64,000 nucleotides of DNA from a virus (Duplodnaviria > Heunggongvirae > Uroviricota > Caudoviricetes). Positions within the stretch are counted from its first letter, which is position 1. Each line of letters opens with the position of its first letter. The notes under the pieces are model-generated. The model was not told the DNA's origin, did no database searches, and saw only the letters and a program-made list of their open reading frames with translations. The translations under genes were made by a program, and so were the position numbers. The DNA lies in the IMG/VR virus record IMGVR_UViG_2563366947_000002; one strand, 5' to 3'. Positions 29,659 to 39,224 of this stretch are shown here, piece by piece.

Positions 29659-30426
29659 TCACCCCATAGATATCGAGGTTTCGGTAATAATACGTTTTGC
29701 GTCCAACTCCCATGCTGTGATCACGTCTGCAATCACACTTATCGGCGCTTGTGTGGCATAAATACGCTCTTCTCCAATTGGTGCTGAAACATCCGTAAAG
29801 CCGACTTCTTTGGCATCCTGTATCGAGCAAATCAGCGGGACCGGGACACGAACAAGGTGAGTGGTTGCTTCAAATTGTGTACCTGTCATCAGGCGAAGCC
29901 GTGCGCCCAGCGAATTACACATCAGACTCATGGTCGCTTTATCAGTTGCCATTAACGTAACGTCATACGTCAGAATGGCCTGGGTGTATTCCAGTTCTGC
30001 TAAAGGCATTCCGGTATCCGGTTCGCAAAAACTGGCTACTTTTTTGCGGTCAATCTGCTGATCATCGTTGATATAATTGATATCCATAGTGCGTGAGATA
30101 TTGACCAGGGGGAGAGCATCCCGGTTAATGTTCTGGTTTTCAGGTTTTCTCCCTTGCCCGGCATTTGCGCGACGAACTGCTTTAAGAAACTCGATCGCAT
30201 TGTCGAAACGGGCCACATAGACACGCTCTGCTGGTGGACGATTCAGGAATGACGCAAAGCGTTTTTCTTCCGGCGCGGGGGCCACAAGTAAGATATCAGA
30301 AAAAATGTTGCTGATTAGCGTCGCAAACGCGTTATCCACGTTTTCAAAGCCCGTGGTCTGGAATTTTCCTGTGCGTGAGGTTTGCCATTCACCTGTTCGC
30401 GCCAGGAGGGTTTTATTTGAAGTCAT
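29659..30426 (-). CDS. hypothetical tail/baseplate protein
   Basis: 255-aa ORF in the same operon. Confidence 0.4.
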   Translation of the reverse strand: MTSNKTLLARTGEWQTSRTGKFQTTGFENVDNAFATLISNIFSDILLVAPAPEEKRFASFLNRPPAERVYVARFDNAIEFLKAVRRANAGQGRKPENQNINRDALPLVNISRTMDINYINDDQQIDRKKVASFCEPDTGMPLAELEYTQAILTYDVTLMATDKATMSLMCNSLGARLRLMTGTQFEATTHLVRVPVPLICSIQDAKEVGFTDVSAPIGEERIYATQAPISVIADVITAWELDAKRIITETSISMG

Positions 30427-31226
30427 TCGATCACTCCGTTTTGAGTCGTATCAAAATTCCTGGCAGGTATGCAGTAGTAAAGCGAACCAACATGCTGTGT
30501 GCCGTAGCTAAAAATACGGTGCACGTACCACCAGCGGCGCGCTACGCCGTTTACCATCTCTTCATTCCATTCAAGAATTGAGCCGACGGGGACGTTATTT
30601 GCTGCAATACGCAGAATCAGAACATCATCGGTTAAGCCATCCTGCTCACCGTCTGCGTCAATCGCATGGAAAGAGTCACGCCCGTCAGGGTTATCCAGCA
30701 CATAAACGATTTCAGGTTCCTGGTAAGTCAGTTCGCGTTGGTTGTTATCCAGTTCAGTGAATGACTCTTCTCCTGTTTCGTCGCTGACTACCCCATATGT
30801 GCCAACATCTGGTCGATATAAGAGAGCCTGAAACGCGTCTGGGCTGGATTCAATAATCAGCATCCAGTCTGCGCGGATTTGGTCGTTAAAGGCTTTATGC
30901 CCGTTATAGCGTGCTTTTAGCTGTGGAGTTGATTCTCTGCCAGCCAGGGAAGGTGGAAGTATGGCTATATCTGATTCGCCAGCATCCGGAGTAAGGCCAC
31001 CGTTGCTATCAGCAAAATTATCATGGCTATCAGCTTTGGCGGCGGGTTGCTCTTCCAGAATGCTGAATGAATCCGAACCGGTATTGCCATGTTCCGGCGC
31101 GCCTCCTGCATTCACTTCAATCGGCGCTGGCGTTTCTCTCTGCGTGCTGTCATGTTCTGACTCCTTACTTGCCAGGTTTGCATCGTCAGCAAACCATTCG
31201 TCAAAACGGCCCATAAGCATCCTCAA
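30423..31226 (-). CDS. hypothetical acidic protein
   Basis: 267-aa Asp/Glu-rich ORF, first gene of the operon. Confidence 0.4.
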   Translation of the reverse strand: MRMLMGRFDEWFADDANLASKESEHDSTQRETPAPIEVNAGGAPEHGNTGSDSFSILEEQPAAKADSHDNFADSNGGLTPDAGESDIAILPPSLAGRESTPQLKARYNGHKAFNDQIRADWMLIIESSPDAFQALLYRPDVGTYGVVSDETGEESFTELDNNQRELTYQEPEIVYVLDNPDGRDSFHAIDADGEQDGLTDDVLILRIAANNVPVGSILEWNEEMVNGVARRWWYVHRIFSYGTQHVGSLYYCIPARNFDTTQNGVIE

Positions 31227-31376
31227 AGGTCGATCTGTCAGGTATCGAAAGGAAGATTTTCGGGAGATTGTGATTTTGGATGAAGGAGGGGAAATTCATA
31301 AAATGCACTTGCGCACAGTGCGACGGTGCGCTATAGTTATGGCATTCGGTAATCATCACGGAGGATCAAATGACTA

Positions 31377-31679
31377 ATGACCAAAAAAATTAACATAAAG
31401 GATTTCAGGGATGCGTGGCTTGATGATTTTTTTGAATTTTCAACACCACATAGAAAGATACCTCCTGATATTCATATGACATTGTCACGGAAGTTGGACA
31501 TTATCAATGCCGCAACTACCTGTAAGGATTTAAGATCACCACCAGGCAATCGGTATGAGGAACTGTCAGGGAAGCTAAATGGCTATTCATCAGTAAGGGT
31601 GAATAAGCAATATAGGTTAATTTTTAAGTGGGTTAACGGAAAGGCCGAGGACTTGTATCTCGACCCTCACAAATACTAA
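31377..31679 (+). CDS. higB: RelE/HigB-family toxin
   Basis: 100 aa; C-terminal YRLIFKWVNGKAEDLYLDPHKY resembles the HigB family; GGAGG RBS; followed by an HTH gene. Confidence 0.65.
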   Translation: MTKKINIKDFRDAWLDDFFEFSTPHRKIPPDIHMTLSRKLDIINAATTCKDLRSPPGNRYEELSGKLNGYSSVRVNKQYRLIFKWVNGKAEDLYLDPHKY

Positions 31680-31749
31680 AACAGATACCCGGTTACGGAC
31701 CGGGTTCTGACCAGAGTCCACTTAATACGCACGCTAGTAAGGGCAAAAA

Positions 31750-32088
31750 ATGAAACAGGCAACCAGAAAACCGACGACCGTAGGTGATATCCTGCTGTAC
31801 GAATACCTGGAGCCATTAGAGCTGAAGATCAACGAGTTAGCAGAAATACTTCATGTTCATCGTAACACCGTAAGTGCTCTTGTTAATAATAATCGTAAGC
31901 TAACGATGGATATGGCATATCGCCTGGCAAAAGCATTCGATACTTCTGTAGATTTTTGGATTAATCTTCAGACCGCAGTAGATCTGTGGGAAGTCGAAAA
32001 TGATATGCGCGTTCAGGAAGAGTTAAGTCGTATCAATACTGCTGAAAAATTTATTTCTCAGCGTAACCTGAATAAAAAAGCAGCCTGA
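31750..32088 (+). CDS. higA: HigA-type HTH antitoxin
   Basis: 112 aa; XRE-type HTH (INELAEILHVHRNTVSALVNN) and FWINLQ motif typical of HigA. Confidence 0.65.
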   Translation: MKQATRKPTTVGDILLYEYLEPLELKINELAEILHVHRNTVSALVNNNRKLTMDMAYRLAKAFDTSVDFWINLQTAVDLWEVENDMRVQEELSRINTAEKFISQRNLNKKAA

Positions 32089-32144
32089 TATAGTAAAACA
32101 CATACAAAAAGCCCACTTAGCAAGTGGGCTTTCCTTTGTAATTA

Positions 32145-32504
32145 ATGAACATTAAACCTATCCGTACAGAACAAGATTATGAGGCCGCACTGCGTGCGGT
32201 CGAACCGATGTTCGATAACGAACCGGAAATGAATACTCCGGAAGGTGATTTCTTTGAGGTTATGAGTCTTCTCATTGAGGAGTACGAGAAGAAACATTAC
32301 CCAATTGAGCCACCATCACCTATTGAGGCCATTAAATTCCGTATGGAACAGCAAGGGCTGACCGTGAAGGATCTGGAACCGGCAATTGGTAAGTCAAACC
32401 GTGTTTACGAAGTGCTTAATGGGACACGAAATTTGACGTTACCTATGATTCGTCGTTTACATGCCCAGTTTGGTATTCCACTGGAAAGTCTGGTTGGTGT
32501 TTAA
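32145..32504 (+). CDS. second HigA-family HTH protein (C-terminal HTH type)
   Basis: 119 aa; C-terminal IGKSNRVYEVLNGTRNLTLPMIRRLHAQFGIPLESL matches the E. coli HigA architecture. Confidence 0.55.
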   Translation: MNIKPIRTEQDYEAALRAVEPMFDNEPEMNTPEGDFFEVMSLLIEEYEKKHYPIEPPSPIEAIKFRMEQQGLTVKDLEPAIGKSNRVYEVLNGTRNLTLPMIRRLHAQFGIPLESLVGV

Positions 32505-32554
32505 GTTTGGCGGTCTGGAGGACCGCTTTTTATCTAAAATAAAAATTAGAAGGT

Positions 32555-33304
32555 TTGATAGCTTGTATGGGCAAAAATTCATCAACAGAAAACACATCTA
32601 CAATTGACTCAATCAAGGGCACAATGGATGAAGCCATAAAAGATAAATTATTTAATAAATTATTTGCATATGTGGTGGTTTCATTTTTTGTCGTTAATTG
32701 GCAAGAAATACTAATTTTGTTTAAATCTAAATATGATATATACACAACACTGTCTATAGTATGGGTAGGGGATAAATATCAAATCCCTTATTTTGGAACC
32801 TTCATTGTATCTCCGTTTTTAGCTCACTTTGTTATGCCGTTTATATATGGCACTATTGCGTCCATAGTAATGCCTTATATTACTATGCGTATATCAAAAC
32901 TAACTGGTAGAAATTATGCGCAAATAAGATACATTGACCATGAATTTGACTCAGAAGAGAAAGCAAGAGTAAAGGCGTTACTGAGAAACCTAAAGAAAAA
33001 AGAGGAAGAGCTTTTAAAATTAGAGGAACAAATAGAAGGTCAACAAAAAATACTGAATACAATCGAAGAAAAGAAGAGAGAGATTGAGAGTGCCAGAGTG
33101 GCTCTGTATCACGGTATAAAAGTAATTGTTGATATATATAAAGCAAAAGATAAAAGGATTTCCACCAAAGAAGATTTTGCCGATTTATTAAAAGCAATTG
33201 AAGGAAGTGATTTTTATAAAGACACTGGGTTGTGGGGTATTAATAATTTAATAGATGACGTGGAGACAATATATGAGTCTCAATCGACATCAAAGGACAA
33301 GTAA
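32555..33304 (+). CDS. membrane protein with two TM helices and a C-terminal coiled coil
   Basis: 249-aa ORF in a visibly AT-rich tract; start ambiguous (TTG 32555 or ATG 32567). Confidence 0.5.
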   Translation: MIACMGKNSSTENTSTIDSIKGTMDEAIKDKLFNKLFAYVVVSFFVVNWQEILILFKSKYDIYTTLSIVWVGDKYQIPYFGTFIVSPFLAHFVMPFIYGTIASIVMPYITMRISKLTGRNYAQIRYIDHEFDSEEKARVKALLRNLKKKEEELLKLEEQIEGQQKILNTIEEKKREIESARVALYHGIKVIVDIYKAKDKRISTKEDFADLLKAIEGSDFYKDTGLWGINNLIDDVETIYESQSTSKDK

Positions 33305-33337
33305 TATAAAAGGCGGGATAACCGCCTTTGTTGTAAA

Positions 33338-34534
33338 TTAAGAACCTTTCTTCACATACTCCATAAACATTTTTTCAGCTTGCTCAGGTGACGTTCCTGC
33401 CATGACAAGCGCATCAATGAACGCCTGCTTCTTCAGTGCGAACTGATCGGCAAGGCGTTGCTGAAGCTCCTTGTTTTTCTGTTTCTCACGTTGCAAGGCC
33501 GCTTCTTTTGCTGCCGCCCGTTTTTTCTGTGCGTCTGACAACTTTCTGGCTTTGGTCAATTGGTCACGTAGCTTGTCAATTTTGCCGTTGTCCTTTGCCA
33601 GTTTTGTGCTTAAAGCGGCCTGGCGCTTCTGATAGAGCCTCCATTCGCGCTTGGCAGCGTCAACGTTTGTTTTACTGTTGCGATTGCGATTAAACTCCCT
33701 CTCGTCTTCTTTTGAGAAGTGTTTGGTTGTACGGCGGCGATCGTCACCAAATGCAATTTGCGTTGCGGCCTTTTGTAACGCACGAGCAATACTCATTTGC
33801 CAACTAGCGGACTGTAACCGCGTCATTGAGTGGATCACGTGTTTACAGGCGACGCCTTGTAGCTTAGGGTTACGAACTTTTGGATAGGCGTATTCTTTTG
33901 GCGGGGCCAGGGCAAAGTTACCCGCAGTAGCGATGTAACGATACCAGTATTGATGACGACCACAGTCACAATCGAAAGACACCCGCCCGGCGCACAGTGA
34001 TTTAGTGATTTTCAGAGCTGATTTATCGTCTTCTGCGATGTCATCGACCATCTGATCCCATTCTTCAAAGCGTATCCGGACGATATGGTGCTGGTGGACG
34101 GATATATCCGATGCTTCTACGCGGATATTAATCACGTTGTGGCGAAGAGATACGGGTGTAGCTCTTTTGATACCAGATCCGTCATCCACGGCGTTATTTG
34201 CACGCTTAATATCGATTGCTTGGCTGGATGCCACCAGCTGGGCGTATGTGATGCCAGCCGTCTTGCTGTCATATTTTTCGCGTGTTTTACTCCGTAGCTT
34301 TTCGAAACCTTTCAGGTCGTCTCGCGTGAAGAACGTGCCGCCTTTTTTCTTCCCTAACTTGAGAATATCTTCGGCGGATTTGTTCCTCAGTCTACCTGGC
34401 GTCAGCGTCCGGTGAGCTTGTCGGCGCTTACGGGTTTGTTCTTTCCTGATAAGGTCGAATAAACGCGTGAAGTCCTTAGAGGACAGGCCGTCAGTGATAT
34501 AGCGCCCGTCCTGGTTTTTCAGGAAATCAGGCAT
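33338..34534 (-). CDS. SWIM-zinc-finger-like protein with basic coiled-coil C-terminus
   Basis: 398 aa; CxC..CxH pattern (FDCDCGRHQYW ... GVACKHVIH). Confidence 0.4.
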   Translation of the reverse strand: MPDFLKNQDGRYITDGLSSKDFTRLFDLIRKEQTRKRRQAHRTLTPGRLRNKSAEDILKLGKKKGGTFFTRDDLKGFEKLRSKTREKYDSKTAGITYAQLVASSQAIDIKRANNAVDDGSGIKRATPVSLRHNVINIRVEASDISVHQHHIVRIRFEEWDQMVDDIAEDDKSALKITKSLCAGRVSFDCDCGRHQYWYRYIATAGNFALAPPKEYAYPKVRNPKLQGVACKHVIHSMTRLQSASWQMSIARALQKAATQIAFGDDRRRTTKHFSKEDEREFNRNRNSKTNVDAAKREWRLYQKRQAALSTKLAKDNGKIDKLRDQLTKARKLSDAQKKRAAAKEAALQREKQKNKELQQRLADQFALKKQAFIDALVMAGTSPEQAEKMFMEYVKKGS

Positions 34535-34856: not shown

Positions 34857-35184
34857 AACAAAGCCTCTCAGTCATAACCTGGGGGAAACTGTATGCAGGG
34901 TGTGAAATGCGAGAAACAGACAGGCCACCAGTTCAGGGGGATGTGGTTCATAAATTCCCTCACTGGTGACAAGTGACTTTCATTAATCTTTATGCGGGGG
35001 CCAGCTTCATTTGCTGGCATTAGATTAAAAATTAAACGGAGTGAATGACATGGATGTTATCTTCGAATTATTAATGCTAATTGATCTGTTTATGAACGCT
35101 TCATTGACCACTCAAATACTCGCGTCAATATTTTTGTTACTCTTCTACCTGGTATTGAGGGAGTTAACAAAGCTACTAATGTGA

Positions 35185-36106: not shown

Positions 36107-36730
36107 ATGAAGGATGGTGTAGTGAAGTTAAGGGTTTTAGGGGCCGCGCTCGCGGCTATGTTGGGATGCGTATCTGTTAATACTGCCAATGCAACTGCGT
36201 TACCTGCACAATTCAGGGCAGGGCAGCAGGTTATGAATAACGCTGGTGGGGATCATTCACAAGCGGCAATTATGGACTTTTGCAAGAGGGAGGGCATTCC
36301 ATTACGGCCTGTTGGAACTCAGTTTATTGGTAAAACTGACTTTTGCGTTTTTGCATATACAGCATATCTGACGGACAAAGCTATAACAAAAACAGGTTAT
36401 TCAACCAAAGATACTCTTTCCAGATTAAGTCAGGGATGGCAGCAATTCGAAGTGTATCGCCAGCAAGGATTAGGTGAGTTATTGCAACCACTTTTTATGC
36501 TTGCGTTGGTGCCAGAGGGGCAGCAATTTTTGGTTAAAAAGGGAATGCTTCGCCAAAGTGATATTGCCGGGTTCGATAGCATGATGGCTTATGAGCGCAA
36601 ACTAACCGAGCAGCGAAATAAAAAACCATCTGCTTCATGTGTGCAAAGTAAAACAGCAGAATACAGTGCAGTAGCCGGGCCTTTAGCCAAACAAATGGCA
36701 GAGCAATGGTGTAAAAAATACGGGCAATAA
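36107..36730 (+). CDS. secreted protein (signal peptide)
   Basis: N-terminal LGAALAAMLGCVSVNTANA then a soluble domain. Confidence 0.45.
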   Translation: MKDGVVKLRVLGAALAAMLGCVSVNTANATALPAQFRAGQQVMNNAGGDHSQAAIMDFCKREGIPLRPVGTQFIGKTDFCVFAYTAYLTDKAITKTGYSTKDTLSRLSQGWQQFEVYRQQGLGELLQPLFMLALVPEGQQFLVKKGMLRQSDIAGFDSMMAYERKLTEQRNKKPSASCVQSKTAEYSAVAGPLAKQMAEQWCKKYGQ

Positions 36731-36750
36731 GTTACGCCGCGGAGGCAGAA

Positions 36751-37143
36751 TTGAAAAGATTGGCTATTGCTTTACTGGCGTCTTTCCCTTTGATCGCGAG
36801 CGCCGGAAATTTACAAGTTAAGTGCGGTCGGTTTGATATAAAAATCTATCCAGATGCCATATTTCTGAATGGGAATAAGGTTGATAACGCACACCGAAAA
36901 ACTGAATCTGACGTAATGAGCTATGTGTTCCAGGAGTATGCGGAGATGGGGGGAACTTACACGCTGTACTCGCTGGATGTTCCTTCTCGCGGTGATATGA
37001 CATTATCCCATCAATGGCAGAACGCCGATGGCGAAGCTCTGCGCGAGGTTAAAACAGAAAAATGTGGCACTTTCCATTCTTTTAAAGGGAAAGCGCCAAA
37101 TGTTAAATCTGTGCTTGAAAAACAGCGCGCAGGTGATTTTTAA
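36751..37143 (+). CDS. secreted protein (signal peptide)
   Basis: N-terminal MKRLAIALLASFPLIASA signal peptide; 130 aa. Confidence 0.45.
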   Translation: MKRLAIALLASFPLIASAGNLQVKCGRFDIKIYPDAIFLNGNKVDNAHRKTESDVMSYVFQEYAEMGGTYTLYSLDVPSRGDMTLSHQWQNADGEALREVKTEKCGTFHSFKGKAPNVKSVLEKQRAGDF

Positions 37144-37231
37144 ACTGCGTTAGAACTTTGAACATGGCGACAACACATCTTGGTGGCTGCGTTGTCGCTG
37201 TATGCTTTTATAATATAAAGCATTAAAGTTT

Positions 37232-37849
37232 TCATTTTTGTCGGATCTTTTCCAGCATATTTAATTCATTATCACTTTCTGCTGCTGAGACGGTTGGCCT
37301 CACATTTCCGAAATATTTCCTGTGAGACTCATGACTTATGTATTCACCGACAGTTTCATTCTTGAATATACGAATTTGACATATGCGAGATCCAACAATA
37401 AGTTCTACAGGGCTATTCCCATGATTAAATAACTCTAAAGATATACAGCCTCTGTACCCTGGTTGTATCATGGTATTTAATGAAAGACCAAGCCTTGTAT
37501 AGCTGCTTCTGGACAATACATCAGCGTAGCAATCTGGTGGCAAACAAACATATTCTAATGTTGTTGCCAGTACCACTTGATTCGGGTAAACAATGAATCT
37601 ATCCCCAAGATCTCTCCTTGTTTCCTGGAAAAATGTTCTGATTGGTTGATGAGTATCATTGTTTTTAGAGGGAATTAACTCTATTGACGGCTTCCTTGTC
37701 ATAATAGACACTAAAAAATCGTAACCAAGTCTAAGGTCTATGGTGAAGTTCCCAATTTGGTTTTTATTTAGAAGAGGTTCAATGAACAACGACTCAGGTT
37801 CTTCTGATTCATAATATTGCAGCAATTCAGCTTTGCTTAGGAGATTCAT
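37232..37849 (-). CDS. dCTP deaminase (Dcd) family protein, dUTPase fold
   Basis: Aligns with E. coli Dcd (SRSSYTRLGLSL vs GRSSLARLGLMV; PGYRGCISLELFNHG vs PGWSGCIVLEFYNSG). ATG at 37849 overlaps the upstream stop (ATGA), GGAG RBS. Confidence 0.7.
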   Translation of the reverse strand: MNLLSKAELLQYYESEEPESLFIEPLLNKNQIGNFTIDLRLGYDFLVSIMTRKPSIELIPSKNNDTHQPIRTFFQETRRDLGDRFIVYPNQVVLATTLEYVCLPPDCYADVLSRSSYTRLGLSLNTMIQPGYRGCISLELFNHGNSPVELIVGSRICQIRIFKNETVGEYISHESHRKYFGNVRPTVSAAESDNELNMLEKIRQK

Positions 37850-38919
37850 TGTGCACTCCATTTTTCAAGAATCATTACGTTTCGAATCGATTTTTCAACC
37901 AAATCATTTATAGTTTTTTCTATGGCTTCTTTTGACAACCCAGACCATATACCCGTAGGTTTTTCCCATTCAGAGCATAAGTACTGCCAGCTGCTGTTAA
38001 TAAAAGCATGCATTTCATTGTGGTCGCGAATAACAAAAGGACGCACATTATCAAAAGCTGATTTCACATCAAGCAAAGGTGTCGGCAATGTCAAACAAGG
38101 AGAAATAATCTGCCCACCCTTATGTAAGGCTGATATCACAGCATTGAACATGCCAACAACTGGATTTTCCACTTTGTTCAAAAAGTCGCTTACAATTTTA
38201 ACTCTATCTTCTGTGGATGGGTGAGTATAGCTTGCAGGATGAGAGCCAGCTAATTTGTATAAGAAATCTACCCCACTTTTTCCAATAAATTGGGCACTAA
38301 ATAGATCTGCAAAATATTCTCTGCAATGATTTATCCAAATAACATCAGGTAGATTACTCCATTCTGGTCCAGGAAGTGTGCCTTTGTCCTTGGAACGATA
38401 GTTAAGACAGGCAAGCTCAGAAATACCTTTGCTAATATCAACGAAATGTCCCAATTCGTGATATAAAGGTATAGAGCATAATGGTCGTCTTCTGTACATT
38501 TCAGGTAATGAAATCTGGATTAATTCGACCTCGAATTTGACATTTAAAACTTCATCAAATAAAGAATACAAATTCTTGTTTACAGACTTAAAATAAAACC
38601 CATGCATATCTGGAGATAGGGCAGTGGTTATAAGTGTTTTTTCACTTATCCATTTTTTACAGGCATCATTTAAGCAATAAACAATCTCGTAGGGAATTTT
38701 CTTTGTAGTACTGCCAGTGAAAAAATTAACTGCATCGGTGATAAAAAAAGTACAATCCGCAATTATTTTATCAGCAACATTCACATGGTTTTCATAGAGC
38801 TTATCTACCGCTTCTTGTAGAACAGCAAGATATTCATGCATGTCTTTAGAAAAATAGGGAGATTCTGATATCTCCCTTAGCTTATTTCGAACTAATGTAA
38901 GTTGTGTAAATGCAAGCAT
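37846..38919 (-). CDS. HExxH zinc-metallopeptidase-like protein (ImmA/IrrE-like?)
   Basis: 357 aa; HELGH motif then EYFADLF; start overlaps the upstream stop (TAATG). Confidence 0.55.
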   Translation of the reverse strand: MLAFTQLTLVRNKLREISESPYFSKDMHEYLAVLQEAVDKLYENHVNVADKIIADCTFFITDAVNFFTGSTTKKIPYEIVYCLNDACKKWISEKTLITTALSPDMHGFYFKSVNKNLYSLFDEVLNVKFEVELIQISLPEMYRRRPLCSIPLYHELGHFVDISKGISELACLNYRSKDKGTLPGPEWSNLPDVIWINHCREYFADLFSAQFIGKSGVDFLYKLAGSHPASYTHPSTEDRVKIVSDFLNKVENPVVGMFNAVISALHKGGQIISPCLTLPTPLLDVKSAFDNVRPFVIRDHNEMHAFINSSWQYLCSEWEKPTGIWSGLSKEAIEKTINDLVEKSIRNVMILEKWSAQ

Positions 38920-39224
38920 TAAATGTACTCTAATACATTCCGGGCCATTACGGGTTCTAACATATCTTCGCTAGTTACTTTGGTTAGCACCTGGGCGAGC
39001 GCCTTAGTGTGGCGTATCTCTACCGCGAGCGAGATGGACTCTCTGTGAGAAGGAATCTGTAATTGATCACCTTTATCTACACTTAAGTTTGAGGCTTCTC
39101 TGATCACCTCATAAACCCGTAACTTTAACTGCTGTGACACTTCTTGTTGAGATGCTATAAGCTGAAGTACAGTCTTGATTAACTTCAAAGAATCAGAAGC
39201 TTGCTGAGGAACCGCATAGAGCAT
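38919..39224 (-). CDS. small helical protein, first gene of the three-gene operon
   Basis: 101 aa; strong AAGGAGG RBS 6 nt upstream. Confidence 0.5.
   Translation of the reverse strand: MLYAVPQQASDSLKLIKTVLQLIASQQEVSQQLKLRVYEVIREASNLSVDKGDQLQIPSHRESISLAVEIRHTKALAQVLTKVTSEDMLEPVMARNVLEYI

Follow-up and report, generated by a model that had tools for sequence, protein, structure and literature searches.

The 64,000-nucleotide stretch analysed here (the window) comes from an element that is a D6-like (P1-related) phage-plasmid. At 32145-33304 it carries two adjacent genes, one for a 119-aa helix-turn-helix protein of the HigA type (HTH119) and one for a predicted inner-membrane protein (MEM), which a sequence-only reading had taken as a possible two-gene exclusion or abortive-infection module. 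We found instead that the locus is probably explained, with a probability of about 0.7, as a cargo island in which HTH119 would be an orphan HigA2 antitoxin whose toxin was displaced by another toxin-antitoxin (TA) cassette and MEM would be an autonomous accessory gene. Within this explanation, the analysis establishes what the genes are, that a cassette was swapped, and that HTH119 and MEM are independent of each other.

The assignment of the element is based on its DNA matches, which comprised 112 plasmid records and 95 E. coli genomes, every one of them plasmid-borne; phage D6 shares 94.5% DNA identity with the window across 31300-32739. We consider that the region 31377-33304 would form a cargo ('moron') island between the late tail genes 7 and 25 and on the opposite strand to them. 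The left edge of the island is the tail gene 7 homologue (30423-31226, minus strand), whose protein is 100% identical to D6 orf69, annotated as 'similar to P1 gene 7', and the right flank is the tail gene 25 homologue (33338-34534, minus strand), which is 98% identical to D6 orf74, annotated as 'similar to P1 gene 25'. The island appears to consist of three separate units with a hairpin at the end of each. The first unit, higB1-higA1 (31377-32088), would be a complete TA pair with a role in plasmid addiction, and the pair is treated in the literature as a post-segregational killing system of D6-like plasmids. It encodes HigB1 (31377-31679, plus strand), a RelE-fold toxin that matches PF05015 HigB-like_toxin (E 4e-35) and corresponds to D6 orf70, and HigA1 (31750-32088, plus strand), its cognate antitoxin of 112 aa with an N-terminal HTH (HTH_3, residues 16-70), which matches the antidote_HigA equivalog TIGR02607 (E 8e-30). 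A both-strand terminator scan placed a bidirectional hairpin terminator at 32106-32134 (−17.9 kcal/mol, z −4.75) that closes higB1-higA1. The second unit, HTH119 (32145-32504, plus strand), is followed by a hairpin with a T-run at 32509-32535 (plus strand; −12 kcal/mol, z −3.0), a terminator or attenuator, and the third, MEM (32567-33304, plus strand; phrog_8191, E 5e-112), ends at a hairpin terminator at 33309-33329 (−15.4 kcal/mol, z −4.5) that it has in common with the convergent tail gene 25. An Rfam search of 31000-33500 returned no match.

HTH119 had been described from the sequence as a 119-aa gene of HigA architecture, and the profile searches bear this out. Its C-terminal half is an Xre-type HTH (PF01381/HTH_3, residues 63-115), residues 6-112 align to E. 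coli HigA/YgjM of the solved HigB-HigA complex (5IFG_B/5YCL_A, E 1e-7), and it matches positions 1-119 of the PADLOC profile PD-Lambda-2_B (E 4e-43) as well as phrog_1373. The pN/pS among alleles is 0.01-0.08, indicating that HTH119 is a genuine gene and not a chance open reading frame. The protein has its toxin-binding region at the N-terminus and the Xre HTH at the C-terminus, and so shares the N-terminal helical region and C-terminal HTH of the E. coli K-12 HigB-HigA system (YgjN-YgjM; 5IFG; PF09907). The K-12 system also has the toxin-first gene order that HigB2 and HTH119 have in sibling plasmids. K-12 HigA is longer (138 aa versus 119 aa), and the E-value of 1e-7 implies that the identity between the two proteins is low. 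The observation that HTH119 has no toxin partner is true within the window: HigB1 belongs with HigA1, and tblastn with three HigB2 variants detected no PF09907 HigB in the 64 kb. A HigB2 gene could be located in the remaining ~30 kb of the plasmid or in the host chromosome. Because the toxin gene, the higB2 promoter and the operators are missing, the window holds half of a HigB-HigA system.

The other half is present in sibling plasmids. In six sibling loci (L002, L008-L010, L012 and L013), HigB2 (PF09907) sits 3 nt upstream of the HTH119 gene, and a cognate HigB also lies upstream of HigA2 in L038. The L002 copy of HigB2 matches PF09907, PD-Lambda-2_A (E 1e-41) and the toxin chain of the same solved structure to which HTH119 aligns. 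The window and L002 are identical through gene 7 and for a further ~60-100 nt; an unrelated stretch follows, and identity resumes 7-10 nt ahead of the HTH119 ATG. The 32106-32134 terminator, 10 nt upstream of the HTH119 start codon, is within the stretch that replaces HigB2. In addition, the query shares 99.5% identity with HigB1-type plasmids over its left 1027 nt and 99% identity with HigB2-type plasmids from position 839 rightwards, and the two parts overlap within HTH119. This comparison demonstrates the displacement of HigB2 and its promoter in the window by a complete PF05015 HigB/HigA cassette together with its terminator. Recombination would have put higB1-higA1 in place of the HigB2 gene, promoter and operators, with the HTH119 gene serving as the right-hand homology arm. 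HTH119 would then be the antitoxin half (HigA2, of the E. coli YgjM type) left from an older HigB2-HigA2 pair, orphaned because the first unit replaced its toxin gene, promoter and operators, and higB1-higA1 would be the incoming cassette that displaced its toxin rather than its partner. The swap would be recent, since the 3' half of HTH119 and MEM are 99% identical to HigB2-type plasmids, and this would explain why HTH119 is still intact.

The HigB2 promoter of L002 carries two TCCCAnnnTGGGA palindromes, which may be the operators of HTH119. These palindromes are absent near the locus in the window, where the lone match with one mismatch, at 29708, is within chance expectation. A parallel swap is seen in a second backbone, where TacA-TacT and a terminator occupy the place of HigB2, and an N-terminal relic of HigA2 remains before MEM. 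Two unrelated backbones have the gene order HigB2-HigA2-MEM, and all three genes have diverged between them.

We also compared the locus with the three-gene anti-phage system PD-lambda-2 (Vassallo et al. 2022, PMC9519451), in which a HigB-like and a HigA-like gene are accompanied by a third. The PD-lambda-2 A and B profiles are the best defence-database matches for the sibling HigB2 (E 1e-41) and HTH119 (E 4e-43), respectively. However, the B profile has 402 positions, of which HTH119 covers 1-119, and HTH119 lacks the C-terminal ImmA/IrrE-type peptidase, the toxic part. The third PD-lambda-2 component is related to the P4 antitoxin, and MEM matches no PD-lambda-2 model in PADLOC. We therefore rejected the locus as a PD-lambda-2 system, as the peptidase is missing along with components A and C.

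The related loci suggest what becomes of HTH119 once its toxin is gone. It is damaged in 12 of the 20 related HigB1-type loci versus none of the six HigB2-type loci. The damage is a truncation at residue 65 in ten loci, which keep only residues 1-65 and are without the HTH domain, an in-frame stop in L024 and an indel in L011. The pN/pS of HTH119 is 0.078 for orphan copies versus 0.014 for copies with HigB2. In the window, HTH119 lies directly behind a terminator and is without a ribosome-binding site: the GGAG Shine-Dalgarno sequence is absent before it, and no promoter-like site was found ahead of it. Judged from these sequence features, HTH119 in the window is most likely a weakly expressed relic. 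Some selection may still act on the orphan gene, for example for anti-addiction, because the copy in the window is intact and the orphan pN/pS is low.

Taken further, HTH119 could be a working anti-addiction gene, in that HigA2 without HigB2 would let the plasmid displace a HigB2-HigA2 sibling while the host survives the leftover toxin. D6-like plasmids are of a single replicon type, which puts them in competition for a host cell, and all those concerned here fall in the same replicon cluster. Orphan HTH119 is intact in about eight other HigB1-type loci as well as in the window, at the pN/pS given above, the old antitoxin is also retained in the second backbone, and anti-addiction by antitoxins without a toxin is an established concept, covered in two reviews (PMC12548467, PMC7354431). 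We nevertheless consider this role unlikely, as the strong terminator 10 nt upstream stands together with the missing Shine-Dalgarno and promoter-like sites, truncation or breakage affects over half of the orphan copies, the second backbone retains the truncated HigA2 relic only, and the copy in the window is accounted for by the recent crossover within the gene.

The proximity of HTH119 and MEM had suggested a regulator-effector module for exclusion or abortive infection, in which HTH119 would repress or neutralise MEM. The two genes do lie next to each other in the same orientation, 62 bp apart, and this pairing recurs in 14 of 28 related loci besides the window. However, the partner of HTH119 in the sibling plasmids is HigB2, a toxin of a proven type, and a hairpin terminator separates HTH119 from MEM. 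The two genes also occur independently of each other. MEM is intact in 11 of the 12 loci with a damaged HTH119; in ten loci an intact MEM stands beside an HTH119 reduced to residues 1-65, with its DNA-binding domain gone, and L004 has HTH119 and no MEM. Furthermore, relatives of MEM occur without an HTH neighbour, and the palindromes of the HigB2 promoter are missing from the window. Thus, the two-gene model appears largely refuted by the comparative sequence data, and we regard a regulatory or neutralising action of HTH119 on MEM as very improbable. The hairpin at 32509 is conserved in D6-like loci, and hairpins of unrelated sequence are found at the same junction in L038 and L035. The interval from the 32509 hairpin to the start codon of MEM yielded no convincing σ70 promoter, suggesting that MEM may rely on upstream read-through; a promoter-like site is present 30 nt upstream of MEM in L030.

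For MEM itself, the open reading frame had been called correctly, while the start had not. All relatives and RefSeq use the ATG at 32567, which gives a protein of 245 aa and the 62-bp gap after HTH119 instead of the 249 aa and 50 bp given before; the alternative TTG start at 32555 (249 aa) is 1 nt after the only purine-rich stretch. The GC content of MEM is 0.32 compared with 0.467 for the window. The claim that the gene lies in the most AT-rich tract holds for gene-sized tracts, as it is the lowest-GC 738-bp tract of the 64 kb, and fails at 1-kb resolution, where 38001-39000 is marginally more AT-rich. In each of nine contexts checked, MEM had a higher AT content than the sequence around it.

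On hydropathy, charge distribution and the AlphaFold model, MEM has two transmembrane helices and a long helical stalk, corresponding to the two helices and C-terminal coiled coil that had been read from the sequence. The hydrophobic segments are at residues ~31-52 (TM1) and ~83-106 (TM2), and the model (mean pLDDT 88) has a continuous helix from 83 to 193 followed by a helical hairpin at 201-244. The confidence of the model depended on the alignment, with a pLDDT of 64 for 11 sequences and 88 for 50 sequences. MEM is thus predicted to span the inner membrane as a helical hairpin whose termini are both cytoplasmic, and to carry a stalk helix of ~90 residues and a small helical domain at the C-terminus. 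The predicted cytoplasmic domain amounts to 140 residues. Conserved motifs are S39, N44-W45, K53-S54, P91, G95 and P103. The match to phrog_8191 is full-length (MEM residues 1-245 against profile positions 1-241 of 242, E 4.6e-112), and the D6 orf73 and L003 alleles match the same family. As this family has no annotation, membership names MEM without explaining its function. MEM has no Pfam or NCBIfam match and no match at E ≤0.1 among 5027 PADLOC 2.0 models. Searches of PADLOC, Pfam and NCBIfam with 50 family members gave scattered coiled-coil matches (LmuB, JetC etc.), none in more than six members. A PDB sequence-profile search with MEM was empty or uninformative, and a literature search found nothing on D6 orf72 or orf73.

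An exhaustive profile search gave a MEM family of ~80 clusters at 50% identity, in contexts that include lambdoid, SSU5-like and Bacteroidota prophages. In every phage-plasmid locus examined, MEM is immediately 3' of a TA cassette, which is HigB2-HigA2 (two subtypes), HigB1-HigA1 or TacAT. In unrelated prophages, its relatives follow TacAT, umuDC, a methylase or nothing recognisable, and umuDC precedes MEM in two unrelated contexts. MEM is always co-directional with, and the last gene of, its block, and its relatives appear to travel as the final gene of cargo blocks in unrelated temperate phages. Defence-type genes are near some relatives, namely a Cap4 nuclease and a TIR protein in L005 and an AAA_21 ATPase and a methylase in L046. 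A scan of GTDB genomes for MEM relatives gave pattern matches, none of which was confirmed, and a further word-indexed search for homologues, using the broad alignment, contributed little.

MEM is deleted in the D6-like plasmid L004 and broken in L012 and L027, and tblastn against P1 and the other deposited phages found it in D6 alone. MEM is consequently neither a conserved virion nor a lysis component, the case that would have refuted the sequence-only reading. In D6, the lysis genes lydA and lydB are at another location, and we rejected MEM as a lysis or virion protein for its wrong location and its dispensability. A holin, antiholin or spanin is likewise a poor comparison, since MEM is outside the lysis cassette, is not conserved among related phages and has 245 aa. 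The tblastn result also led us to reject MEM as a P1 gene.

The dN/dS of MEM is 0.2-0.4, TM1 is the most constrained part, and the reading frame is kept at saturated synonymous divergence. MEM is accordingly a genuine gene under purifying selection, and it is dispensable for the phage. The alleles are 35-78% identical inside a backbone that is otherwise 96-100% identical. Saturated synonymous sites and the low dN/dS led us to reject in-situ diversifying selection as the source of this diversity, and imply that the alleles are old and exchanged by recombination. The third unit would be an autonomous accessory gene whose ancient alleles have been swapped between plasmids.

Membrane proteins for superinfection exclusion or abortive infection include T4 Imm, P22 SieA and SieB, HK97 gp15, λ RexB and CBASS-type effectors with two transmembrane helices. 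MEM is like the prophage 'moron' proteins of this kind in being small, AT-rich, terminator-bounded, antisense to late genes, dispensable, polymorphic and predicted to reside in the inner membrane. Compared with T4 Imm, SieA/SieB, HK97 gp15, RexB and the CBASS effectors, it showed no sequence, profile or fold similarity, and, to our knowledge, a long cytoplasmic stalk helix with a C-terminal helical hairpin is not a feature of these proteins. An exclusion or abortive-infection role is plausible from the context, dispensability and allele diversity of MEM. We infer, somewhat short of even odds, that lysogens produce MEM and that it works at the inner membrane to counter phage or DNA entering the cell, through either superinfection exclusion or abortive infection. 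The conserved membrane hairpin would then be the effector, and the variable cytoplasmic stalk and C-terminal domain would provide specificity. No PADLOC, Pfam or structural match was found in support of a defence or exclusion role, and dN/dS, which stays below 1 throughout, does not point directly to an arms race.

MEM could also be unrelated to defence and have another role in lysogenic conversion or as part of a selfish element (envelope or stress physiology, entry exclusion of conjugative DNA, or membrane anchoring), or be near-neutral cargo. We see this as a rather doubtful though reasonable possibility. MEM resembles none of the 5027 PADLOC models beyond generic coiled-coil matches, positive selection leaves no signal at a dN/dS of 0.2-0.4, some plasmids have lost or broken the gene, and several of its neighbours, such as umuDC and TA addiction modules, are not defence genes. 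By contrast, purifying selection has held over the long term, at saturated dS, in many lineages, the many old alleles shuffled by recombination in one plasmid population are more typical of conflict genes than of housekeeping genes, and the Cap4/TIR and AAA_21/methylase neighbours are of a defence type.

The adjacency to TA cassettes in all phage-plasmids and the recurring HigB2-HigA2-MEM order hint that MEM may be linked, functionally or transcriptionally, to TA operons in general. In the strongest form of such a link, MEM would be the distal, attenuated gene of an upstream stress-derepressed operon (TA or umuDC), the upstream genes acting as sensor or regulator and MEM as the membrane effector of a loose three-part system. 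In addition to its place directly behind a TA cassette in every phage-plasmid locus seen and behind umuDC twice, its co-directional and terminal position, a stable hairpin of unrelated sequence at the junction before MEM in three cassettes and the lack of an obvious own promoter in the window fit this arrangement, and PD-lambda-2 indicates that HigB/HigA-like pairs can require a third gene for defence (PMC9519451). However, we consider it improbable: MEM is retained whatever the upstream module and also occurs without one, in a lambdoid prophage, a Bacteroidota prophage and chromosomal sites; L030 has a promoter-like site 30 nt ahead of it; MEM matches no PD-lambda-2 component model in PADLOC; and the co-location with TA genes may merely reflect a common insertion-tolerant site for lysogen-expressed cargo. 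Similarly improbable is the full combination, in which MEM would be the founder of a new, widespread family of autonomous inner-membrane effectors of prophages for exclusion or abortive infection, read-through attenuation would couple its expression to upstream HigBA, TacAT or umuDC, cassette replacement would re-key the trigger, and the leftover antitoxin would guard against the toxin of displaced siblings.

With the two-gene defence module dissolved, the remaining value of the locus is modest. The locus is useful to annotators, since an HTH gene without a toxin, when it lies next to a membrane gene, is readily mistaken for the regulator of a regulator-effector pair. It provides a clean, dated example of TA cassette exchange on phage-plasmids, in which the new pair and its terminator would replace the old toxin only and the orphaned old antitoxin then decays, with the same outcome in two unrelated plasmid-phage backbones; the case bears on plasmid competition and anti-addiction. 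Phrog_8191 and its distant relatives (~80 clusters) are here defined as a well-behaved membrane protein family with a confident structural model. As mobile, polymorphic and dispensable prophage cargo, the family is a reasonable candidate for a phage-exclusion screen, and, should it prove protective, the catalogue of defence systems would gain a new family.

The gene for a 119-residue HigA-type protein (HTH119) and the membrane-protein gene behind it (MEM) lie in a D6-like phage-plasmid. Within the 2.1 kb around this gene pair, positions 31300-32739 are 94.5% identical to Escherichia phage D6, itself a P1-related phage-plasmid, and the 2.1-kb region has matches in 112 plasmid records and in 95 complete E. 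coli genomes, all on non-mobilizable ~90-kb plasmids. The D6 annotation names both flanks as P1 tail-gene homologues, gene 7 (30423-31226) and gene 25 (33338-34534), both on the minus strand; the plus-strand insert amid two minus-strand late genes therefore holds the position of a cargo ('moron') island.

The first unit of the island is a complete HigBA addiction pair, consisting of a PF05015 toxin, HigB1 (31377-31679, plus strand), and its canonical antitoxin HigA1 (31750-32088, plus strand; TIGR02607 equivalog, E 8e-30), and published work regards this pair as responsible for post-segregational killing in D6-like plasmids (PMC6799933). The second unit, HTH119 (32145-32504, plus strand), encodes a 119-aa protein of HigA architecture, as the sequence-only reading held, with an Xre-type HTH at residues 63-115. 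It is homologous to the E. coli HigA (YgjM) whose complex with HigB has a solved structure (E 1e-7). In PADLOC it aligns with the PD-lambda-2 component B profile (E 4e-43), over the first 119 of 402 positions. In component B, a HigA-like domain is joined to a peptidase (PMC9519451). HTH119 lacks the peptidase, and the locus, with neither an A component nor a P4-antitoxin-like C component, does not form a PD-lambda-2 system. HigB1 belongs to a different family from the partner of HTH119, and because this upstream toxin already has its own antitoxin, HTH119 is a second, unpartnered one. In a sibling plasmid (L002) and five other loci, a 100-aa PF09907 HigB (HigB2) ends 3 nt upstream of the HTH119 gene (98-99% identical); the sibling-plasmid HigB2 corresponds to the toxin chain in that solved E. 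coli complex and also matches PD-lambda-2 component A. A HigB2 of this type was not found anywhere within the 64-kb window, which bears out the earlier remark that no toxin is visible for this HTH. As a YgjM-type HigA, HTH119 is an ordinary member of its family; what makes it instructive is its evolutionary state as an orphan.

The cassette swap that orphaned HTH119 is seen in the comparison with L002. The two sequences are identical across gene 7 and a short stretch past it; the segment that follows is unrelated between them, and identity resumes 7-10 nt ahead of the HTH119 start codon. The window-specific stretch is a complete unit of promoter region, higB1, higA1 and a strong bidirectional terminator (32106-32134, both strands; -17.9 kcal/mol); lost relative to L002 are the HigB2 promoter and the HigB2 gene, and with the end of the latter the GGAG ribosome-binding site that it contains. 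The L002 HigB2 promoter (L002:2627-2671) contains two TCCCAnnnTGGGA palindromes, with the inverted repeats TCCCAGCATGGGA and GTCCCATGTTGGGAC, which are probable HigA2 operators; neither these palindromes nor equivalents were found in the window. HigB1-type plasmids match the left half of the query at 99.5% identity and HigB2-type plasmids the right half at 99%, and the two sets of matches overlap inside HTH119, indicating that the window is a recent recombinant with its crossover within the antitoxin gene. Against D6 (L001:6268-6440), the first ~58 MEM codons (32567-32739) show ~94% DNA identity, followed by ~36% protein identity, and similarity to other plasmids breaks at 32326 or 32584. These differing positions indicate that allele exchange uses several breakpoints around or in the MEM 5' end and within HTH119.

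We counted the arrangements between genes 7 and 25 in 28 related loci besides the window. HTH119 and MEM follow HigB2 in six loci, and HigB1-HigA1 precedes full-length HTH119 and MEM in eight loci and the window. HTH119 behind HigB1-HigA1 is cut to residues 1-65 with an intact MEM in ten loci, MEM is deleted from this arrangement in one (L004), and three Klebsiella loci have umuDC-MEM; one more locus, L028, has MEM at the contig end and is not among the 28. The full-length orphans include one with an in-frame stop (L024) and one with an indel (L011). The pN/pS of HTH119 is 0.014 with HigB2 and 0.078 in the orphan copies; this increase and the broken copies thus indicate relaxed selection, with decay that is frequent though not universal. 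A live rival explanation is that HTH119 serves as an 'anti-addiction' gene against HigB2-type sibling plasmids, which have the same replicon type.

HTH119 and MEM had been read as a regulator-effector pair forming a possible exclusion or Abi module. This pairing does not stand, since a hairpin with a T-run separates the genes, each occurs without the other, and the partner of the known kind for HTH119 is missing: the two are neighbours by history, not partners, and the module is not real. No promoter-like site was found between the hairpin at 32509 and the MEM start; if an HTH protein controls MEM in the window at all, it is more likely HigA1, via read-through from the higB1 promoter. MEM is always last in a co-directional cargo block, usually behind a TA cassette, and junction hairpins of unrelated sequence precede it in three different cassettes. 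This placement, the one pattern that we could not set aside, could provide attenuated read-through expression from stress-derepressed operons, or it could reflect only a shared insertion-tolerant site.

MEM, the third unit, is an independent, constrained, dispensable and polymorphic membrane protein gene. It spans 32567-33304 on the plus strand and encodes 245 aa from the ATG used by every relative and every database annotation; the ORF end at 33304 agrees with the initial description, while the 249 aa given there depend on a TTG at 32555. The two TM helices claimed for it correspond to hydropathy segments at residues ~31-52 and ~83-106. Positive charge lies mostly past the second segment (R108, K111, R115, R121), and by the positive-inside rule both termini should be cytoplasmic. 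AlphaFold, run on 50 family members, gave a confident model (mean pLDDT 88). From the N-terminus, it has an amphipathic helix, a kinked TM1, a short loop bearing a beta-hairpin, a continuous helix (83-193) comprising TM2 and a stalk, and a C-terminal helical hairpin (201-244). At a GC content of 0.32, MEM is indeed the most AT-rich 738-bp tract of the window, and it is AT-richer than its surroundings in 9 of 9 contexts checked.

MEM matches phrog_8191, a PHROG family without functional annotation, over its full length (E 5e-112) and has no match in Pfam, NCBIfam or PADLOC. Its close homologues are restricted to phage-plasmids of Escherichia and Salmonella plus one Klebsiella chromosome. Exhaustive profile searching gave 80 clusters of similar length. 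Invariant or nearly invariant residues are S39, N44-W45, K53-S54, P91, G95 and P103 in the membrane part and Y191 in the C-terminal domain; only generic coiled coils came back when solved and viral structures were searched by fold and by sequence. Among D6-like plasmids, the alleles share 35-78% identity with the window protein, compared with 92-100% for the adjacent genes 25 and 26. Their synonymous sites are saturated and dN/dS is 0.2-0.4, with the strongest constraint in TM1, which led us to reject local hypermutation as the source of this diversity; the alleles are old and functional and have been moved by recombination. Besides its deletion in L004, MEM is broken in L012 and L027, and outside D6 it is absent from P1 and all other deposited phages. 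It is therefore dispensable and, when checked as a conserved virion or lysis component, proved not to be one.

Distant relatives of MEM occur amid the replication and nin genes of a lambdoid prophage (L030, opposite strand), inside the structural genes of a Bacteroidota prophage (L031, opposite strand), at a chromosomal site (L036), in a genomic island that also encodes a methylase, an H-NS homologue and an HNH protein (L039), and behind the genes of an AAA_21 ATPase and a C5 methylase (L046). In the lambdoid prophage, a gene just upstream on the same strand as the MEM homologue (L030:5250-5780) encodes a protein of 176 aa that has a single membrane helix, at the N-terminus, and matches nothing in Pfam; it could be a partner there. 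umuD/umuC-like genes directly precede MEM homologues in two unrelated contexts, L045:2395-4591 and L005:6232-8804, the latter on the Klebsiella grimontii chromosome, where MEM adjoins gene 25/26 homologues, gene 25 is interrupted, and the island holds HicAB, a Cap4 nuclease and a TIR protein. On another P1/D6-like plasmid (L038), MEM follows a different HigB2 (103 aa)-HigA2 (139 aa) pair. An unrelated ~95-kb backbone, marked by a Gp23-like capsid gene, ParA and an SLT-domain protein, has MEM after HigB2-HigA2, intact, in L035 (5221-6708); in L032-34, L042 and L044, TacA-TacT with its terminator stands in place of HigB2, and the spacer ahead of MEM still codes the N-terminal half of HigA2 (L032:5621-6000, L033:5710-5916, L044:3666-3872). 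This truncated relic indicates that, independently in the second backbone, the toxin was swapped with the antitoxin left behind and MEM kept.

Some D6-like plasmids have a further RelE/ParE-HigA pair one intergenic site on from the island, between gene 26 and mat (L004:5851-6422); similar weak HigA1-like matches lie at L011:9190-9402 and L014:8421-8651, and in the window the gene 26/mat site has only small ORFs (34868-35184). TA cassettes have landed repeatedly in this part of the genome. Two plus-strand genes at 36107-37143 encode products of 207 and 130 aa with signal-peptide-like N-termini, and the counterpart position in D6 is orf79, annotated as 'similar to P1 simB' (a superimmunity accessory function); a sim-type exclusion locus may already be present 3 kb from HTH119 and MEM. 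The second most AT-rich stretch, 37201-38987 (GC 0.34-0.36 in 738-bp tracts), may be additional acquired cargo.

We assign a probability of roughly two in five to the reading that lysogens produce MEM and that it acts against superinfecting phage or DNA at the inner membrane. Such action would resemble that of known prophage exclusion and Abi membrane proteins. MEM belongs to none of these families, since tests by sequence, profile and fold all failed to place it there. Uncharacterised prophage cargo proteins form a broad class, of which MEM is a new member; as a candidate for a defence screen it is reasonable but unproven.
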